This document shows, in pieces, positions 1 through 42,664 of a DNA stretch of 64,000 bases (its first letter is position 1; each line of letters opens with the position of its first letter). Location: the NCBI GenBank assembly GCA_050298595.1, contig JBNKUM010000008.1, positions 32,001 to 96,000 of the forward strand, given 5' to 3'. Under the pieces are notes generated by a model. The model did not search any database, was not told the DNA's origin, and was given only the letters and a program-made list of their open reading frames with translations. Source of the stretch: Gammaproteobacteria bacterium. Lineage in GTDB: Bacteria; Pseudomonadota; Gammaproteobacteria; GCA-001735895. The translations under genes were made by a program, and so were the position numbers.

Positions 1-374
1 TACTGGTGAGCCAATGTAGACAAACTTTGTCCTGATGTCAGTTGAACATCGAAGGACTGTTCGGGGAAATAGAGGTTGCCAGGCGTATTGATTTGCCGCA
101 ACAAGTCTTCAGCACTGCTGCTCTGCGGAATGGCTTTCAGATAAGCATGTAATTCAGCCCTGGCTTCGCTGGCTTTACCGGTTGCCAGAAATTGTAATGC
201 TTTGGCAAAGCGCTGGCGCGGGGTTAAACCGGGCTGTACCTGGTATTGACTGGCCGCAGCGTTGGATTTGTCGACGGTGGTGGAGGGCTTGGGCGTCATT
301 TTACAGCCCAAAAGCAAACTAATCATTATGGCTGGCAACACAAGCCTGATAATGCTATCCCTGATGTTGTTCAT
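1..374 (-). CDS. Lipoprotein, N-terminal part (runs off window start); possible TPR-like helices and start of a LysM-like segment
   Basis: Manual translation from ATG at 374: MNNIRDSIIRLVLPAIMISLLLGCKMTPKP...RFAKALQFLATGKASEARAEL...VQLTSGQSLSTLAHQ; lipobox LLGC; open to position 1. Confidence 0.7.
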   Translation of the reverse strand, partial: MNNIRDSIIRLVLPAIMISLLLGCKMTPKPSTTVDKSNAAASQYQVQPGLTPRQRFAKALQFLATGKASEARAELHAYLKAIPQSSSAEDLLRQINTPGNLYFPEQSFDVQLTSGQSLSTLAHQ

Positions 375-1236
375 ATTCCGCCTCTACCCTTGTAGTCTTA
401 CAGAGTGTCTGTGGTTTACATCGTTATTATTGTCATGACGTTGCCATTGGTACAGGACAATCGATTATCGTAGCATAACCTGTTCAAAATAGTGGCACAA
501 TGGACAACATGTTGAATGAATTAATGTAATATCTGTCTTTCAGCACAGTATTGCACCAGGCCATATTGAGCGCTGATAAGTAGATTGACCATCACGCTGC
601 AAGTCCTGGTGGCTATCATTGACCACCCGGTTTATGGCATCATGCCAGCACCTGTTGAATGTTTGTCTGCAGTTTTACTATCACTGTTGAGTTTAGGAAT
701 CAGTATCCCCCATGGCCAGCAAAAAATCCCGAGGTAAACGTCCCTCCGTCGCTAAAAAAGTATAGTAAGAATAAACGCGACATCCTATTTATGATGCTTG
801 CGCTTGTTGAAAGGCAAGCAGTAAACCTAAGCTCATGAAAACTGAAGATACAACTGCTAAGAAACTCATATTAAACCCAAAACTAAAAAGTTGATTCATA
901 TCGAAACATTATGCGTAGCAAGAATGCAAGTATGCGGGCAATATTGGAGATATATTTTTTATTAGTTTTACACTAACTTATTTTTCATTAAGTATAATAT
1001 TTCCTGTAGGAAAATATCAAGTTCAGTAAAATTAACTGTACGAGAAAATCTTGCTAATTTCCACATAGCGGACATTAGTGATTCTGGCTGGTTTGGCTGC
1101 TATTAACCCTGAGTTGACATTTAGGATTAACAAAAAGAAGGTGGATACCTTGGGAAAAACTGTCTCAAAATCAGTTTGACACTTTTTACCTTCCGATGTT
1201 CGTAAGTTGAGAAGAGTTCTCATGTACCTCCGCCCC

Positions 1237-1272
1237 CTTTAACTTCCGCTTTAACTTCCGCTTTATCTTCCA
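1237..1272. repeat. 12-bp tandem repeat, three units
   Basis: CTTTAACTTCCG CTTTAACTTCCG CTTTATCTTCCA. Confidence 0.85.
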
Positions 1273-1273
1273 T

Positions 1274-1846
1274 TTAACTGTCCGAGTTGACGCGATTGTT
1301 ATAAAACACATCCTTTATATTTCTCTCAATTGAAACTAAATAACCACCCAAACCTACGAGCAAAACCAACCAGACTGCATACATTCCCCATTCAGCTGGA
1401 TTAGCAGTACTATTGTATAAATGATTGGCTATCGGAATAGCCGATGCTAAGAATATAAAATTTGTAACCCATAACCTGTTTAAATTCATAAACTCTTTAG
1501 GGCATGTTGATAGGTATCTGTCCCATACTTTTTCACCATCTTCCGTAGTATCTTGTTCATTCAGGAACATCCTAATTCTCTTGACGGCAAATTCTCCGCC
1601 AAGAATATAAAAGTCAAATAATACAGCGACCAAAGGCGCTATGTACAAAAGACCGAAGATAAAGAAAATACCATCATCTGATTCTAAGTTTAAAAGTGTT
1701 GCTGCCACACTAAACAAGCCAATGACAAATGTGAATTTTAGCCTAACATAGGATGCTCGGCGATCCTGTTGCTTTAGCTTCTCTTCGCGCAAGTGAGCTA
1801 TAAACTCAGAGCAAGCCCTTTTTTCTTCTTTTTCTTCGGTATCCAT
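1274..1846 (-). CDS. Uncharacterised membrane protein, about 4 TM segments
   Basis: 190-aa ORF with four hydrophobic stretches; its ATG directly follows the TGA of the U32 gene (TGAATG). Confidence 0.8.
   Translation of the reverse strand: MDTEEKEEKRACSEFIAHLREEKLKQQDRRASYVRLKFTFVIGLFSVAATLLNLESDDGIFFIFGLLYIAPLVAVLFDFYILGGEFAVKRIRMFLNEQDTTEDGEKVWDRYLSTCPKEFMNLNRLWVTNFIFLASAIPIANHLYNSTANPAEWGMYAVWLVLLVGLGGYLVSIERNIKDVFYNNRVNSDS
1278..1309 (-). other. attC-like inverse core (left arm only)
   Basis: Minus strand GTGTTTTATAACAATCGCGTCAACTCGGAC: a TAAC inverse core followed by an attC-type CAACTCGGAC box, overlapping the 3' end of the membrane-protein gene. Confidence 0.55.
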
Positions 1847-2815
1847 TCAAGTCACCTCATTACTTAATAGAAAACTTGTTTTAGAATCATATCTATCAGG
1901 CACAACCGATTTAGAGTGTTTGAAATTTTCGACAATACATCTCATGTCTCCATTATATTGAGAAGAAAGATATGACTGGACACTTTGGAATATTAGCTCC
2001 GTTTCAAATGATCGACCAACTATTTTAAAAATCGGATCGAATTGGAGGTATTTCTCAATATTTCGTGGGCTTATATAATTTGTTTTTCCTATCCCTCTGT
2101 TATTCATGTGTGACCGACATGGTTGACCTAGATACCTATCCTTCTCCGAGTCAGTAATAAAATCCCGAATAGCGGACTCGATGCTATAGTTTTGAGCGTC
2201 TAGTTGATCATTCCTTCTATGGGGGCAATATTTTATACAGCCTTCATTGATCATTATTTTTAATTTAACTGACTTATACTTATCTATTAATTTGTTAATA
2301 CTGATAATTTTTGGAACATCATGATTTAAATCCGGCGGCAAAAGGAATATCGTCACCCCCATATCCACCAGTTCTTCTACATCAACTAACGAATCGATAT
2401 CTATGTATACTGAGTTTTGAATGTCAACTTCAACTGGCCAAAGCGTTTTAGCCTGCCTAAGAAGCTCTTTACTTCCTACCGTTACTGAGTTTATGCCATG
2501 CCTCAGTAAACCAGAGACATAATCAACCATAGTATCTGTTGCTAACCCATGAAAATTCATCAATAAATTGGTTTTAATACCTAAATTTCTAGCATCACTA
2601 ATCAGATTTATAATTTCTTGATCATATCTGACATGATCAAAAACGTAATCATCTCCATTTTTCACTATATAATCTTTTATCTTTGGTCTCCGCCCTGAAC
2701 CCATAACGTGGGGGTTCCCGGCGAAATATATTTCCTCAACATGTTCACTTAAGCCAGATAAAACTAGCTTACTGATGAAGTTCTTGTCTCCATTGTATGG
2801 AATAGAAAATTTCAT
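1847..2815 (-). CDS. Peptidase U32-family protein (putative Fe-S, TIM-barrel hydroxylase-like)
   Basis: Motifs IYFAG...GSGR, QNSV, PDLNHD, NEGCIKYCPHR, QPC, YISP, FKIVGR are typical of the U32 superfamily. Confidence 0.75.
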   Translation of the reverse strand: MKFSIPYNGDKNFISKLVLSGLSEHVEEIYFAGNPHVMGSGRRPKIKDYIVKNGDDYVFDHVRYDQEIINLISDARNLGIKTNLLMNFHGLATDTMVDYVSGLLRHGINSVTVGSKELLRQAKTLWPVEVDIQNSVYIDIDSLVDVEELVDMGVTIFLLPPDLNHDVPKIISINKLIDKYKSVKLKIMINEGCIKYCPHRRNDQLDAQNYSIESAIRDFITDSEKDRYLGQPCRSHMNNRGIGKTNYISPRNIEKYLQFDPIFKIVGRSFETELIFQSVQSYLSSQYNGDMRCIVENFKHSKSVVPDRYDSKTSFLLSNEVT

Positions 2816-2816
2816 A

Positions 2817-2845
2817 GTGTTTTATAACAGCTTGATTATGTTACA
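2817..2845 (-). other. Cassette core site (GTTATAA) with remnant right arm of the preceding attC-like site
   Basis: Minus strand ...CATAATCAAGCTGTTATAAAACACTATG: GTT core 13 nt before the U32 ATG; 12-bp perfect inverted match to 1298-1309. Confidence 0.55.
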
Positions 2846-2916
2846 CGCACGAATATTGTGATATGCCGAATTATGTTCTCATTCATAGATAAAATAAACA
2901 ATGACCGCTCATGGCA

Positions 2917-3086
2917 CAGGCTGTGTGAAAACTCGCTTCAATTTGATGACACCAAAAACATTTCCCACTACGGGGTAATTTTTCAGGATTATTTAGAACT
3001 CAATTACCACAAATCACAAAAAATTAATCCTATATAAGCCCGCATATTCCACTTGAAAAATTGGAAAATAGTTTTCACACAGCCTG
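2917..3086. mobile_element. MITE, 170 bp, 17-bp perfect terminal inverted repeats (IS1182-like ends)
   Basis: CAGGCTGTGTGAAAACT at 2917-2933 and AGTTTTCACACAGCCTG at 3070-3086; non-coding AT-rich interior. Confidence 0.75.
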
Positions 3087-3146
3087 GGTACCAACTTGCC
3101 TATTGCGCCGCACAATGCAATGACAGCTTTACCAACCCAGTTTTTT

Positions 3147-3210
3147 AAAAAGCTGAGCGACGATAGGAGCGGAGCTTTTTCGGTCAACTGGATGCTACTT
3201 TTAAAAAGGT
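3147..3210 (-). other. Degenerate, truncated attC-like site
   Basis: Minus strand just after the stop at 3212: GCATCCAGTTGACCGAAAAAGCTCCGCTCCTATCGTCGCTCAGCTTTTT, imperfect hairpin; core boxes eroded. Confidence 0.45.
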
Positions 3211-3211
3211 C

Positions 3212-3415
3212 CTATCTTTTGATCACAAAAGGTAGGGCGATAAAAACACCCCCTATAATGACAAGGATGAACTCATTTGAGATGAAATAAGGAAATAGCA
3301 TTAAGTCTATTCCGCTTAATAAAGGAATGATGGCCTTTTGCTTTTTCCCATAAATAAAGTACCCAAGTCCTATTGATCCAAATAATACTGCCCACATTAA
3401 TGTTGACGTATTCAT
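3212..3415 (-). CDS. Small membrane protein (67 aa), cassette-like
   Basis: MNTSTLMWAVLFGSIGLGYFIYGKKQK...LFPYFIS...; ATG at 3415 lies just after the GTTATGT core site. Confidence 0.75.
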   Translation of the reverse strand: MNTSTLMWAVLFGSIGLGYFIYGKKQKAIIPLLSGIDLMLFPYFISNEFILVIIGGVFIALPFVIKR

Positions 3416-3430
3416 TAATAATTTTTCTTC

Positions 3431-3539
3431 ACATAACGCAGCAAGCAACTGAGGGGGGGGGGTAATTGGTTGCTTTTTTGCGTCTTTTTACAAAAAATAA
3501 GACAGTTTACGGAGGTTAGATTAACTGGCTTTATTAGAA
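3431..3539 (-). other. attC-like recombination site (degenerate, about 109 bp)
   Basis: Minus strand TTCTAATAAAGCCAG...CTCCGTAAACTGTC...TTTTTTGTAAAAAGACGCAAAAAAGC...TTGCTTGCTGCGTTATGT; imperfect palindrome ending in a GTT core; TAAC box reads TAAT. Confidence 0.6.
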
Positions 3540-3739
3540 CACTTTTTCAGACGATACTATACCGCCAGGCATAGCTTTCCTCCATTTTTTAACTTTTGAC
3601 TTTGTAAAGCATACATACTGCCCTTTGATTGTAAGTTAATGTGTTAGAACATGAGCAATTCCTATCGTATTTTTCACAGGATTTTCACAAGCCCCGTTCA
3701 GACTTTTGGTAAGAGTTAAATTCAGACGGGAGAAGTTGT

Positions 3740-4081
3740 ATGAAGAGGATCATGCTAATTTTAGTAATCATGCTATTGACTTCAACTAGTGTTGCTGCAG
3801 AAGCGGGGGATATGTACGCTGAAGCCGACCGGGAAATGATTGAACTGCTGGCATTGAACCACGACCAGGCGTTAGCTTATTTAGCGATAATTGAAAAGCA
3901 ACGGGAGTTGTTTCTAGCACTTAAAGCGAGAGAGTGGCAACAGGAACTTGCGTTTTATCAGCAAACATTCGCACTGTTAAAGCCGGTATTGACCCGAAAG
4001 CAGTATGTTCAATTTGTTGGAATTATTAATAGTGTTATCGAGGATACCAACGATAACGAATTATTGGTTATGGGGGATTAA
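3740..4081 (+). CDS. Small secreted helical hypothetical protein
   Basis: Signal peptide MKRIMLILVIMLLTSTSVAA; GGGAG ribosome-binding site upstream. Confidence 0.75.
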   Translation: MKRIMLILVIMLLTSTSVAAEAGDMYAEADREMIELLALNHDQALAYLAIIEKQRELFLALKAREWQQELAFYQQTFALLKPVLTRKQYVQFVGIINSVIEDTNDNELLVMGD

Positions 4082-4495
4082 CATAATTAACTGGGGGCAA
4101 TCCTTAGCCGGTTCCGGTTAATTACAAATTAAATACAATAACCCACCAATTGATCGTAAGAGCGTTTCCAGAACAACAATGGCCCGAGTCACCCAGGTAT
4201 CAGAAGCAAGGGACTTAGGGGTCAGTTCTCGCATTGAAACAATCTTTAAAAGGGACTGAGATACATAAGAACTCCTCTCAACTTAAGGATATCGCCTATA
4301 CAAAGCTATGTCCGCTTTATTAAAACCATCACTTGTAGGAAATGAATCAACTTTGTATTGCCATAGCCGCAAATGGTACACCTGAAACCTTCACTCATTA
4401 ACCCGGAACGACCGCCTCCAGGAAGGAGCCTGCTACATTCTGACCTTCAATGAGTACTATCGACCCGAATTAGCATCCAGGAAAACGGTCATTTT

Positions 4496-5125
4496 TCAGG
4501 CGTCGTTGAAAGCTTCCACAGTGTACTTCCTGTAAAGCTCAATGACCTTATGTACATAGATCTCAGTTTCGTCAAAAGGCGGGATCTTGTTTCCGTATTT
4601 TAGTACTGCTTTTTCACCCGCATTGTAACTGGCGAGGGCCAGTTGCAGGTCGTTATCAAAACGCACTAGCAAATCCTTAAGATACCGGGTACCACCGGAA
4701 AGATTATCAACTGGGTCATACCGATTCGCGACACCGTAGCGCCTGGCCGTATCTGGCATCAACTGCATCAATCCGACTGCGCCTGAGCTCGACACAGCGG
4801 TCGGATCATAGGCTGATTCAGTGGAGATGACCGCATGAACCAGGCTTTCGGGTAAACCCTGGCTGCGTGCAGCCTCCGCGATCATTAAGGCGAATCGCTG
4901 GCGGTTTTTTTTCATATTTTGATAATCGACTTTCGGCTCACGCCACCCCTTGCGTGATGGTAAAAACAACCGGTAGCCAGAGTGTGGAGGTTTATTAGTC
5001 AGATGAACAAGGCCTTTGTTGTCGACAAACTTATAAATATCGGCATAGGTAGCAGGTGAAGCGGCAGCTGTGCATAAAATCAGAAAAACAACAGCGGGCA
5101 GGACAGATAAACGAGAAGTGCACAT
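4496..5125 (-). CDS. Lytic transglycosylase (SLT domain) with DUF4124-like N-terminus
   Basis: AVISTES, AVSSSGAVGLMQLMP, ALASYNAGE, ETEIYV; N-terminal ADIYKFVDNKG; start probably MCTSR at 5125. Confidence 0.9.
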   Translation of the reverse strand: MCTSRLSVLPAVVFLILCTAAASPATYADIYKFVDNKGLVHLTNKPPHSGYRLFLPSRKGWREPKVDYQNMKKNRQRFALMIAEAARSQGLPESLVHAVISTESAYDPTAVSSSGAVGLMQLMPDTARRYGVANRYDPVDNLSGGTRYLKDLLVRFDNDLQLALASYNAGEKAVLKYGNKIPPFDETEIYVHKVIELYRKYTVEAFNDA

Positions 5126-5223
5126 GCTGGGATTATAATTAAAAATGGCTCTGTAGCAAAACCAAGAGCAAGAGTTAATATTGACACCCATACATATTCC
5201 AGCATCAACCAGGCGATATATTT

Positions 5224-5579
5224 TTCAACCTAGAATTCGCAGTTAGACGAGTTGTAGTGAGTTTGAGGTGGTGTAGATCAAGGAGTTACAGGGCTTCCGC
5301 GTCCTGCTCTCGCCCCTTACCTATATCCCTATAGGCAACGCAGAGATACGTCGCCGCAAACGTGCAATTCAGCTCATAGCGGGATTCACCTGTTGGGTTT
5401 TCAGCATGGATGCCGTTATTACGCGAATGCATGGACGCCTACATGGACGTAGGTGGTAGGGCGAAGCAGGAAGCCAGAGCCGATGCATAGGAGCGTGAAA
5501 ATACAAACTGACTAAGATCGTTAACGAAACTGAAGGTTACCCACTAATACGAGCGGTCAACTGCGGAATCCAGGTTCAA
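5224..5579. mobile_element. MITE-like modular repeat, copy 1 (IS1380-like ends)
   Basis: Ends CCTAGAATTCGCAG / CTGCGGAATCCAGG, flanked on both sides by TTCAA; long homology to 42319-42664. Confidence 0.8.
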
Positions 5580-5668
5580 TAGCACCCAGAATGATTATCT
5601 CACCGCTATTCCTGGCGAAGTGTAAGTAGCAACTGCCCGGGGCGCCCCCCTTGTCTTTACTACAATGG

Positions 5669-7852
5669 CTACTCACCCTCGTAACTGAATATTAGGGCAG
5701 CCAACGGCGGCAAGGTCAGATTCAGGGAGTATGGATGCTCCATCCAGGGTATGGCCTCGGTCTCAAGCAGGGTGGCTCCGTTGCCCAGACTACTGCCTCC
5801 GTAACATTCTGAGTCGGAATTCATGATTTCCCGATAGCGTCCCACGAGCGGAACACCGATACGGTAGTTTTCACGCGGTACCGGCGTCAGGTTACATACC
5901 ACCACTACAATCTCTTCGCCATCACCCTTACGCAGAAAACTCAGGATGGATTGCTGGGCATCGTTGCAGTCTATCCATTCGAAGCCCTGCCAATTGAACT
6001 CGTAGCGGAACAGGGCTGGAGTTTTGCGGTAAAGGTGGCAGAGATCCCGAGTCAACCGTTGTATGCCCTGGTGCAAAGGGTACTCCAGCACATACCAGTC
6101 AAGTTCCCCGGCACTGTTCCACTCGGTACCCTGGCCAAACTCCGTGCCCATGAAGAGCAGCTTCTTGCCAGGATGGGTAAACTGGTAGGTGTAGAGGGTG
6201 CGCAGATTGGCATGCTGCTGCCATTCATCTCCCGGCATTTTATTTAGCATCGACTGTTTGCCATGGACAACTTCATCGTGTGAGAAGGGTAACAGAAAGT
6301 TTTCCGTGAAAGCGTAGAGCATGCTGAATGTGAGCATATTGTGGTGGTACTGACGATGGATAGGTTCGCGGCTCATGAATTGCAGCGTGTCATTCATCCA
6401 GCCCATGTTCCACTTCAGGTCGAAGCCCAGGCCGCCGAGATAGGTTGGTCGGCTGACCTGCGGAAAGGAGGTGGATTCCTCCGCGATCATCAGGGTTCCG
6501 GGACAGTGTTCGTGTACCGCGACATTGAGCTCGCGCAGAAAGTCGATGGCCTCAATGTTTTCCCTGCCGCCATACTGGTTCGGGATCCACTCTCCCTCTT
6601 TGCGTGAGTAGTCGAGGTAGAGCATGGAGGCGACCGCATCCACCCGCAGGCCATCGACGTGCATATCATTCAACCAGAAGAGCGCACTCGAAATGAGGAA
6701 GGCTTTTACTTCATTGCGGCCGAAATTGTAGATCAGTGTCGACCAGTCCAGATGTTCACCCAGGCGAGGGTCTTCGTGCTCATAGAGAGGTGTGCCATCG
6801 AACCAGGCCAGGCCATGGGCGTCCTTGGGAAAATGCGCCGGCACCCAGTCGAGCAAAACGCCGATATTGTTTTGATGGCAGTGGTCGATAAAGTAGCGAA
6901 AATCGTCCGGGCTGCCGAAGCGGCTTGTGGGTGCGAAGTAACCGGTAGTCTGGTAGCCCCAGGAGAGGTCGAATGGGTGCTCGGTGATTGGCAGCAGTTC
7001 AATATGAGTAAATCCCATTTCCTTGACATAATCGACCATTTGTCGGGCGAGTTCGCGGTAGTTCAGGAACTCCCCTTCCATGTCACGCCGCCAGGAGCTG
7101 AAGTGAACCTCGTAGATCGACATGGGGCTGTGTTGCCAGTCCGCGCGGACTCGCGATGCCATCCAGTCGCTATCTCCCCATTGGTAGGTGCTATGTGCAG
7201 TAATGATCGAGGCCGTGTCTGGACGCAATTCAAATTGACGGCCGTAAGGATCGGCCTTGAGGAAAATCTCGCCGCTGTGACGATTGCGGATTTCGAATTT
7301 ATAGAGCCAGCCCGGCTCGAGATCCGGAATGAACAGTTCCCAGACGCCACCACCGGAGTGCACCCTCATGGGATGGCGGCGACCGTCCCATGAATTAAAG
7401 TTACCGACTACGCTGACCCGCTCCGCGTTGGGCGCCCATAGTGCAAAGAGGATACCGGCCACACCATCCACCTCATGCTCGTGGGCTCCGAGGAAACGAT
7501 AGGCATGGCGATGACGCCCCTCGTTGAAGAGGTGCAAATCAAAATCGGAGATCTGCATCTCATAGCTATAGGGGTCGTGATTAATGTGCTCTCGGTGCTC
7601 CTTATCCCGCCATATCAGCCGGTAATGAGGCGGCAGCATCTCGTTGTCGCCCTGCCACAGAAAAAAATCGCTGCCGGTCAGACGTTCTAGCTGGATATCG
7701 CCTTCGGCGATACTGACCTCCAGCGCCTGGGGATTAAAAACACGTATCAGGGTCTGTCCATCATTGGTATGAGGTCCAAGCACAGCGAATGGATCGTGAT
7801 GGCAGGCATCTCGGATCCGTAGCAATTCATTGTCGAGTATCAAGCTGTCCAT
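5669..7852 (-). CDS. glgB: 1,4-alpha-glucan branching enzyme
   Basis: [43 protein letters not shown]; 727 aa. Confidence 0.97.
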
Positions 7853-8211
7853 GATGCATTCTCCAGATTGCTATTCACTAAATATGTATGTTTTCAGACG
7901 AAAACATAGAAAGAATCGGGTAGTTTACTTGCAAATTACAGGTAATAGGGAAAAATTTTCATGATTACGCATAGACTGCATCCCCATTCATACAATAGTA
8001 GGAGCTTTTCCTTGAGAGCAGCTTTCTTTGAGGATTTCGATATTTTTGTAATGTTCTCTATTTCAAACGGTATTGATAAAGTTGAGATAAGCATAGTAAT
8101 GGAGCCACCATTTCGGTCCCAACACCAGAACTACCCCTCGAGTCAAACCAGAATGTTTGTGGATTCCAGTCTTTCACCTATACACCTTCTACCAGGGTGT
8201 AACAGGAAGTT

Positions 8212-42318: not shown

Positions 42319-42664
42319 GGGAGTTACAAAGCTTCCGCGTCCTGCTCACGCCCCTTACCTATGTCCCTATAGGCAAGGCTTCCGCGTCCTGCTCACGCCC
42401 CTTACCTATGTCCCTATAGGCAACACAGAGATACACCACTGCAAACGTGCAATTCAGCTCGTAGCGGCATTCACCTGTTGGATTTTCAGCATGGATGCTG
42501 TTATTTCGCGAATGTATGGACGCCTACATGGACGTAGGTGGTAGAGCGAAGCAGGAAGCCAGAGCCGATGCATAGGAGCGTGAAAAGACAAATAAATGGT
42601 AATGGTTTACGAAACAGTGGGTTACCCTCTAACGTGAGCGGTCAACTGCGGAATCCAGGTTCAA
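42319..42664. mobile_element. MITE-like modular repeat, copy 2 (left end replaced, internal 47-bp tandem duplication)
   Basis: Colinear with 5281-5579; identical right end GAGCGGTCAACTGCGGAATCCAGGTTCAA; 42331-42376 repeated exactly at 42378-42423. Confidence 0.85.

Follow-up and report, generated by a model that had tools for sequence, protein, structure and literature searches.

We found that an AT-rich part of a Gammaproteobacteria genome carries a self-contained operon of two intact genes, which encode a divergent enzyme of the U32 superfamily and a small membrane protein. This pair has previously not been described, and in two relatives (loci L085 and L086) it travels as a single integron gene cassette. 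The operon is located in a stretch of 64,000 nucleotides (nt) of contig JBNKUM010000008.1 (positions 32,001 to 96,000 of the forward strand). This whole stretch is called the window throughout, and coordinates given without a contig or locus name refer to it. Taken together, our data favor an account according to which a U32-like enzyme and its partner are spread by a mobile cassette and would form a membrane-docked, iron-sulfur (Fe-S) dependent modifying enzyme; we put the probability of this whole account at about 60%. The function contained in it is a prediction from sequence. The window copy itself appears to be a stranded and probably immobile cassette, which has lost the distal half of its attC site.

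Both genes are encoded on the minus strand. Gene 1 (1847..2815) is an open reading frame (ORF) of 322 amino acids for the enzyme, a divergent TIM-barrel protein of the U32 superfamily, and gene 2 (1274..1846) is an ORF of 190 amino acids for the membrane protein, which belongs to a new family. As described in a first-pass annotation of this DNA, the two ORFs abut as TGAATG (minus-strand reading across 1849..1844) and are AT-rich; our count reproduced the 17 G+C in the 60 nt from position 2281. The low-GC region extends from about 600 to 4400 (34-43% G+C), its flanks have about 45-57%, and the genome averages 45%. Promoter and terminator scans gave chance-level output. The probable source data have also been assembled independently, and one contig of that assembly covers positions 1081-2928 with no difference; thus, the cassette junctions described below are not an assembly artefact of the window.

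Close relatives of the pair were found at 11 loci, which correspond to nine distinct ones because L086 duplicates L001 and L087 duplicates L005. L085 is an array of repeated sites of about 105-115 nt, each of which starts with an inverse core and ends with a GTTAGGC-like core. These sites fold (z-scores of -8.35, -5.60, and -8.32), and none of 200 shuffles folded as well. The two-gene module fills exactly one interval of this array, between the attC sites with z-scores of -8.35 and -5.60, and a 10-nt complement joins the 5' end of the module to the start of its own site. In L086, an 83-nt site (z -2.14) ends with GTTATAA 4 nt ahead of the ATG, and a site of about 150 nt (z -3.50) runs from TTATAAC, which falls within the final codons of the membrane gene, to GTTAGAA. 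Here, the 5' end is complementary to its own R'', the inverse core, over 7 nt. The motif GTTATAA is also present shortly before the ATG in L003, and L002 has GTTAAAA at this place. Two further attC candidates were not retained: that proposed by our scanner in L088 did not fold (z -0.06) and was dropped, and a 146-nt candidate in L003 was judged unconvincing.

The remnant of such a site can be seen in the window. The first-pass annotation had reported a perfect 12-base-pair (bp) inverted pair at 1298-1309 and 2817-2828; it is present and in fact extends to 13 perfect bp (1297-1309 and 2817-2829). The right arm covers nucleotides 2-14 upstream of the enzyme ATG, so that in the direction of the genes it ends 2 nt before this ATG, and on the minus strand it contains GTTATAA, a core-like motif that would mark the cassette 5' end. 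The left arm falls within the last codons of gene 2, at the 3' end of the membrane ORF, and contains TTATAAC on the same strand, corresponding to the inverse core R''. Complementarity between the 5' GTT core and the R'' of the same unit amounts to 12-13 nt. When the left arm was aligned with the L086 inverse core, 11 nucleotides were invariant. The same arrangement is found in the resident integron of this genome. Positions 72502-77298 of contig C89 constitute a complete classical integron. Its integrase scores 466 bits and its attI core reads GTTATGC; the attC sites of its cassettes, of which there are at least five, measure 55-116 nt, and each cassette 5' end complements its own R''. Since both the position of R'' in L086 and this own-R'' rule match the window, we conclude that the 13-bp pair is what remains of the R'/R'' pairing in the attC of this cassette, a pairing that was split on integration. 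The earlier proposal that a GTT core at the 5' end complements an inverse core at the 3' end was therefore borne out, and the same rule applies in L085, in L086, and among the genome's own cassettes. Elsewhere in the genome, one of the two further integrase genes contains 2 stops, and there are many integrase fragments.

The 13-bp pair exceeds chance expectation. In the 4-kb region that contains it, 56 inverted pairs were present; three perfect pairs of at least 13 nt were found against 0.23 expected, and 1 of 300 dinucleotide shuffles reached three. When the 40 nt upstream of the ATG were shuffled and compared with the 141 nt around the operon end, a complement of at least 12 nt appeared in 3 of 5,000 trials, a frequency that is merely indicative because both windows were picked after the pair had been seen.

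Evidence from the upstream side of the operon points in the same direction. The cassette junction is formed there by a repeat of about 93 nt (repeat b; 2825..2918, minus strand), which ends with ...GCTGTTA. This repeat occurs at 12 junctions in the genome, all ending with ...GCTGTT(A/G), and the copies outside the window include ones on contigs C22, C26, C31, C32, C35, C64, C85, C86, C100, and C101. Four copies end in the canonical core GTTAGGC. The sequence following the junction differs in every copy, and an ORF of at least 56 amino acids begins within 51 nt after 11 of the 12 junctions. Considering the 11 junctions outside the window, a different gene follows at 10. The window unit sits at a cassette junction, behind a conserved GTTA-ending repeat which precedes different genes at 10 other places. 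A complement of 9-12 nt to a site at the ORF end, following the own-R'' rule, was detected at 6 of the 12 junctions, the window included, and in four of the five other cassettes of this kind a hairpin closing TAAC..GTT follows (z -8.1 to about 0). We scanned eight ORFs at b junctions; three matched Pfam families (Tae4, a flavodoxin-like FMN reductase, and TIR) and five did not. Most b copies contain a -10-like TATAAT, and the repeat is also present in genomes of the same genus. It could be a site of recombination, a promoter module, or the end of an element.

Several observations weigh against the cassette assignment of the window copy. The 3' flank of the operon does not fold as an attC (z -0.63 and +0.06), and its best TAAC..GTT candidate reached a z-score of 0.0. 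The segment that should hold the rest of the site (1200..1296, minus strand) has neither a hairpin nor a second arm, and no second copy of the arm was found in the window. Thus, a complete 3' attC of its own, as present in L085 and L086, is lacking here, and the bracketing attC geometry postulated in the first-pass annotation did not hold: two 12-bp arms separated by 1.5 kb do not make an attC, and the sequence 3' of the operon does not form the fold of one. The core-like motif GTTATAA departs from GTTRRRY at two of seven positions. There is no integrase in the window, and the three integron integrases of the genome that score above the TIGR02249 cut-off are located on contigs C89, C75, and C99, none on the contig of the window. 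Clear attC flanks were found at two of the nine distinct relative loci and at none of L002, L004, L005, and L089. Repeat b does not fold as an attC arm (z +1.17), and it shares no similarity with the integrase-linked attI regions of this genome. A crude home-made scanner saw no intact attC in positions 1-8000 of the window; since this scanner is unspecific (1017 hits in about 767 loci genome-wide, about one per 7 kb), its blank result at the island carries little weight. Taken together, the idea of a mobile integron cassette stood up for L085 and L086, and the copy in the window lacks bracketing attC sites.

One may therefore ask whether the window unit is a cassette at all or rather a horizontally acquired islet that was moved by elements resembling miniature inverted-repeat transposable elements (MITEs), the 13-bp pair being a product of coding constraints plus chance. 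The left arm indeed encodes conserved residues (VFYN of ..FYNNR..) common to the closest homologues, the operon has no attC fold on its 3' side, and repeats a, b, c, and d make the region a mosaic. A low-GC stretch of 3 kb lies between the two copies of a longer inverted repeat: the left copy (repeat d, 1194..1242, 49 nt) is a MITE-like end that abuts the truncated attC, and the right partner (4246..4294, 49 nt) is 82% complementary to the left one. Repeat d gave 11 hits in the genome, both window copies counted. The closest relative genome is collinear with the window only up to position 1126, diverges there inside repeat sequence, and its contig then ends in repeats, so that no insertion boundaries can be defined. 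Against the islet stand the 12-nt complement, which arose in 3 of the 5,000 positional shuffles, the finding that GTTATAA and TTATAAC also bound the intact L086 cassette with R'' in the ORF end, and the b junctions, which precede cassettes with their own attC. We consider an islet without any cassette origin distinctly improbable. The two readings are compatible, since an earlier cassette array may have been broken up by MITEs; in particular, the d repeats may have mediated its rearrangement. In the segment that separates the attC remnant from the MITE end, a 12-nt unit with GTTAAA on the minus strand is perfectly duplicated in tandem (1238-1261), and a partial third copy is present.

Returning to the cassette-borne pair, we next consider the enzyme. 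Its family is rare and comprises 23 clusters, the window's own counted, among 5.8 billion proteins. An AlphaFold2 model calculated with a 23-sequence alignment as input (mean predicted local distance difference test score 92.3, predicted template modeling score 0.91) shows a TIM barrel of the U32 type, and the enzyme is predicted to be a cytoplasmic protein. When this model was compared with known structures, the U32 protein 5d88 ranked first with Foldseek (E 2.7e-7, template modeling score 0.66 on the target) and likewise with VIA-align among 48,161 chains (Z 16.7, root-mean-square deviation 3.3, 217 aligned residues); the runners-up of the latter search were generic barrels with Z 13.0. A profile-profile comparison (hhalign) of the enzyme family with the TrhP of this genome, a bona fide U32 member identified by NF011996 (762 bits, cut-off 534), indicated homology with a probability of 94.8% (E 4.9e-8) over 125 columns, the alignment stopping just before the NEGC motif. 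An exhaustive profile search with the enzyme family retrieved 1269 representatives at E<=1e-3. Five of them form a tight clade (E<=1e-119), and the next match follows at 1.9e-73. From the 150 matches listed, we hand-picked 28 outer relatives and checked them for PF01136; 20 scored above the cut-off, 4 below it, and 4 gave no match. Some outer relatives are fused to radical-SAM, B12-radical-SAM, TPR, or class-III aminotransferase domains. In the Atlas, the cluster nearest to the enzyme has PF01136 in 37% of its members.

The cysteine pattern NEGCxxxCP...C noted in the first-pass annotation was recovered as N190 E191 G192 C193 ... C197 P198 ... C233. In the wider alignment, N190, C193, C197, and C233 are invariant and E191 and G192 nearly so. 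The enzyme therefore has three invariant cysteines in the arrangement C-x3-C-x35-C (NEGC-x3-C ... PCR). Characterized U32 proteins are reported to be Fe-S proteins for O2-independent, prephenate-dependent hydroxylation of quinones and RNA (10.1101/587956, PMC10990095), in which a four-cysteine motif CX6CX15CX3/4C, or the variants of it in UbiU and UbiV, binds a 4Fe-4S cluster (10.1101/587956). The superfamily is described as consisting of twelve subfamilies, most of them uncharacterized (PMC10990095).

Not all data fit U32 membership. The enzyme matched no Pfam family at E<=1, and this includes PF01136, for which the first-pass annotation had proposed a profile search; there was no NCBIfam hit either, and the TrhP, UbiU, and UbiV equivalogs were not listed at the same threshold. 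The clade has three invariant cysteines in place of the four-cysteine U32 motif, and the C-terminal four-cysteine motif of more distant relatives is absent from it. Since C-x3-C-x35-C differs from the published motif, binding of an Fe-S cluster is an assumption. A sequence search of the PDB gave nothing significant for either protein family. The enzyme would work most like a U32 Fe-S protein, but because it failed by Pfam score and by the four-cysteine motif, we class it as a divergent branch that lies far out in the U32 superfamily and outside any named family. The earlier label of a peptidase U32 enzyme thus holds at the level of fold, profile-profile, and transitive homology; it does not extend to the PF01136 model itself.

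The names of two relatives in database records ('Peptidase family U32' and 'collagenase-like PrtC family protease') might suggest that the enzyme is a housekeeping U32 protein (an orthologue of UbiU/UbiV, TrhP, or RlhA) or a true collagenase-type protease. We regard this as highly improbable. The UbiU, UbiV, and TrhP equivalog models remained unmatched, the gene is absent from 30 relatives and 400 genomes of the class, and characterized U32 proteins are hydroxylation factors, not proteases. In addition, the genome already contains two canonical U32 genes elsewhere, TrhP (762 bits) and a 749-amino-acid U32 protein, which makes the window gene an additional, aberrant copy without a housekeeping role.

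The second gene encodes an undescribed family. The membrane protein matched nothing in Pfam, NCBIfam, PADLOC, or PHROGs, its family comprises 21 clusters in the set of 5.8 billion proteins, and the Atlas returned only unnamed clusters. Its AlphaFold2 model (mean predicted local distance difference test score 81.9) has helices at residues 13-52, 57-98, 105-114, 118-145, and 150-188, which we describe as an N-terminal amphipathic helix plus four long helices; this four-helix model supports the four-transmembrane partner named in the first-pass annotation. The fold search yielded generic helical bundles alone, and its best hit, a designed nanopore (Z 13.3), is within helical-bundle noise. Conserved charged motifs are located in the N-terminal helix, after helix 2, and before helix 3. 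According to the positive-inside rule, the N-terminal helix, a conserved loop of 40 residues between helices 2 and 3, and the C-terminus should face the cytoplasm, and the invariant charged residues are located in these putatively cytoplasmic parts. No fused forms were found among longer proteins, which is weak evidence by the tool's own rating.

In close loci, the membrane gene always lies directly 3' of the enzyme gene (five of five genome loci and six of six metagenome loci, the latter having been found with the membrane protein as query), and it is present at none of 74 distant-clade loci. The conserved pairing for which the first-pass annotation had suggested a check was thus found at 11 of 11 close loci. 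Mean column identity is 50% in both families. The closest homologues are proteins with 75-81% identity (P0002/P0025 and P0003/P0026), encoded on contigs of 5-27 kb. In L005 (Thermodesulfovibrio), an ORF of 591 amino acids without family match (1012-2787) overlaps the enzyme start by 4 nt; because this ORF has the same low G+C, the operon could comprise three genes at L005. Independently of the window pair, a second association between U32-like enzymes and small membrane proteins was found in the distant clade. At seven of the 74 loci (L013, L014, L016, L020, L026, L035, and L050, from Dehalococcoidia/Anaerolineae), a conserved four-transmembrane protein of about 190 amino acids is encoded directly upstream of the U32-like gene, and it shares no sequence similarity with the window partner. 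At several of these seven loci, a gene for an FMN-binding protein or a B12-radical-SAM enzyme follows.

The distribution of the unit is that of a mobile, sporadic cassette, which has spread across at least four phyla. The hosts of the family are Thiotrichales, Thermodesulfobacteriota, Cloacimonadota, and Thermodesulfovibrio, most of them anaerobes. The membrane gene was found in one of 401 genomes of the class, which is the present genome, and no DNA match to the module was detected in 30 relatives. Module G+C is below that of the flanks in L001, L002, L005, L089, and the window, and the module is inserted between unrelated housekeeping genes (an AFG1-like ATPase gene and an EF-G-like gene in L002, pgk and tpiA in L089). 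Searches of plasmids and phages gave no enzyme homologue, those of plasmids no membrane protein homologue, and against PHROGs the enzyme had a non-significant match alone (E 0.058).

As to the molecular mechanism, we tentatively propose, by analogy, that the pair may be a membrane-docked, O2-independent Fe-S modifying enzyme, and we consider this quite possible. The enzyme would hold an Fe-S cluster ligated by C193, C197, and C233 and would dock on the conserved cytoplasmic face of its membrane partner. The docked enzyme might then modify a membrane-embedded or membrane-proximal substrate by O2-independent redox chemistry, possibly a prephenate-type hydroxylation as in UbiU/V, TrhP, and RlhA. 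Neighbors of distant relatives, of which we scanned 39 out of 141, include genes for B12-radical-SAM, FMN-binding, flavoprotein, 2Fe-2S, DAHP-synthase, and dehydroquinate-synthase proteins. These redox-associated neighbors, the anaerobic hosts, and the four-transmembrane neighbors in the distant clade are hints of a membrane redox enzyme. Because the partner is as conserved as the enzyme and carries charged motifs in its putatively cytoplasmic parts, a docking subunit fits better than a bare pore-forming effector. A difficulty for this proposal is that the enzyme and the membrane protein are linked solely by gene order and that no substrate is indicated. When the complex of both proteins was predicted, a score of 0.00 was obtained twice, in runs that had no controls and thus gave no verdict.

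The first-pass annotation had suggested a different function, namely that of an anti-phage abortive-infection pair, in which a U32-like sensor or modifier acts together with a membrane-disrupting four-helix effector. We consider this unlikely, although part of the evidence is compatible with it. The preprint 10.1101/2024.07.02.601686 states that about 18% of the tested Vibrio cholerae cassettes of unassigned function protect against phages, and the systems it reports include one with a predicted pore-forming membrane protein; according to this preprint, integron cassettes are rich in defence functions. The distribution of the module is sporadic, and defence-type genes were found near it at three of the six loci with at least 5 kb of context. 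The next cassette in L085 (L085:2672-3691, 339 amino acids) weakly matches Aga_SIR2 (E 2e-7) and could be a streamlined defence cassette. In L003, the adjacent gene encodes a Type IIG restriction-modification enzyme, and in L002, Vsr and restriction-modification fragments lie at a distance of 3-5 kb. A ParE-like toxin is encoded in L089, and the TIR protein mentioned above belongs to another b-junction cassette of this genome. On the other hand, none of the PADLOC-DB 2.0 families matched either protein at E<=1, and thus the check with this database proposed in the first-pass annotation was negative; no phage or plasmid copy was found, and L004, L005, L089, and the window have no defence genes adjoining the pair. 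The proposed neighborhood check gave a divided result, with restriction-modification or SIR2-like genes in three of the six larger neighborhoods and none in the other three. Moreover, the membrane protein is conserved like the enzyme and has many invariant charged residues on its putative cytoplasmic face, and relatives of the enzyme occur in redox and metabolic contexts.

When we compared the favored membrane-docked modifying enzyme with known systems, similarities and differences became apparent. With the U32 Fe-S proteins (5d88 is Mk0906), the enzyme shares the TIM barrel and the profile homology to TrhP over strands 3-7. In our reading, a cysteine of the enzyme follows the seventh strand, where the canonical motif starts, and like the U32 proteins the window family occurs mostly in anaerobes. 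In contrast to them, the enzyme lacks a PF01136 or equivalog score, and has three cysteines (C-x3-C-x35-C) and no C-terminal U32 extension; its obligate partner is a small membrane protein and not a second U32 subunit or the lipid-binding UbiT. The known U32 members are core proteins, whereas the window family is mobile and sporadic.

Typical integron cassettes share with the unit the compact co-oriented genes, the short leader, and a GTTA 5' core that complements a 3' inverse core; the host genome has integrases and arrays, and the L085 and L086 copies have intact attC sites. The unit differs from them in its upstream site, which is a genome-wide 93-nt repeat adjoining a MITE, and with two genes and about 1.6 kb it is on the large side. 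Stranded cassettes are known as clusters of attC sites lacking an integron integrase (CALIN) and single attC sites lacking one (SALIN), and the preprint 10.1101/2022.09.11.507474 describes cassettes outside integrons. Without a complete attC, the window copy is not callable even as a SALIN. Sucellos-type two-gene defence, as presented in 10.1101/2024.07.02.601686, resembles the pair in being cassette-borne and including a membrane protein. The window pair differs in that it has no PADLOC match, that the other protein is an enzyme of a redox superfamily, and that it is known from sequence alone. A full-text literature search, with preprint supplements outside its scope, found no paper linking U32 proteins with integrons, and the term U32 occurs 0 times in the integron-defence preprint (10.1101/2024.07.02.601686), again apart from its supplements.

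Other repeats and junction-like motifs surround the operon. Repeat a (2917..3087) is a MITE-like element of 171 nt with 28-nt terminal inverted repeats; BLAST gave 23 hits in the genome, itself included, and contig depth is raised about 50-fold over the unique flanking sequence. It often adjoins repeats b and c, the latter being located at 4371-4466. A run of ten G (3454-3463) lies in the intergenic DNA upstream of a small membrane ORF (3212..3448), and a core-like motif GTTATGT is found about 20 nt before an internal ATG of this ORF, which may be another decayed cassette junction. At 5224-5579, there is a short repeat family with many genome copies, including one in the window at about 42374-42664, and it is also present in genomes of the same genus.

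The pair defines a compact and very divergent U32 branch, whose cysteine pattern is different, whose obligate membrane partner comes from a new family, and which is spread by a mobile cassette. The window copy illustrates how a cassette that is stranded away from any array can be recognized by its R'/R'' remnant alone, and it draws attention to a 93-nt junction repeat that occurs genome-wide and precedes many cassettes. Since the 1.5-kb unit can be cloned as a whole, it is a handle on U32 chemistry beyond quinone and RNA hydroxylation. In its strongest form, our proposal would be a new two-component system, in which a U32-type Fe-S enzyme borne by an integron depends for its activity on docking to a dedicated membrane subunit and confers a selectable trait in anoxic habitats; we hold this form to be doubtful. 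If it were true, the trait could be phage defence via modification of membrane lipids or quinones, and such a system would be the first of its kind built on prephenate-type, O2-independent hydroxylation chemistry. Alternatively, the cassette might provide its hosts with a portable anaerobic modification of an envelope component.

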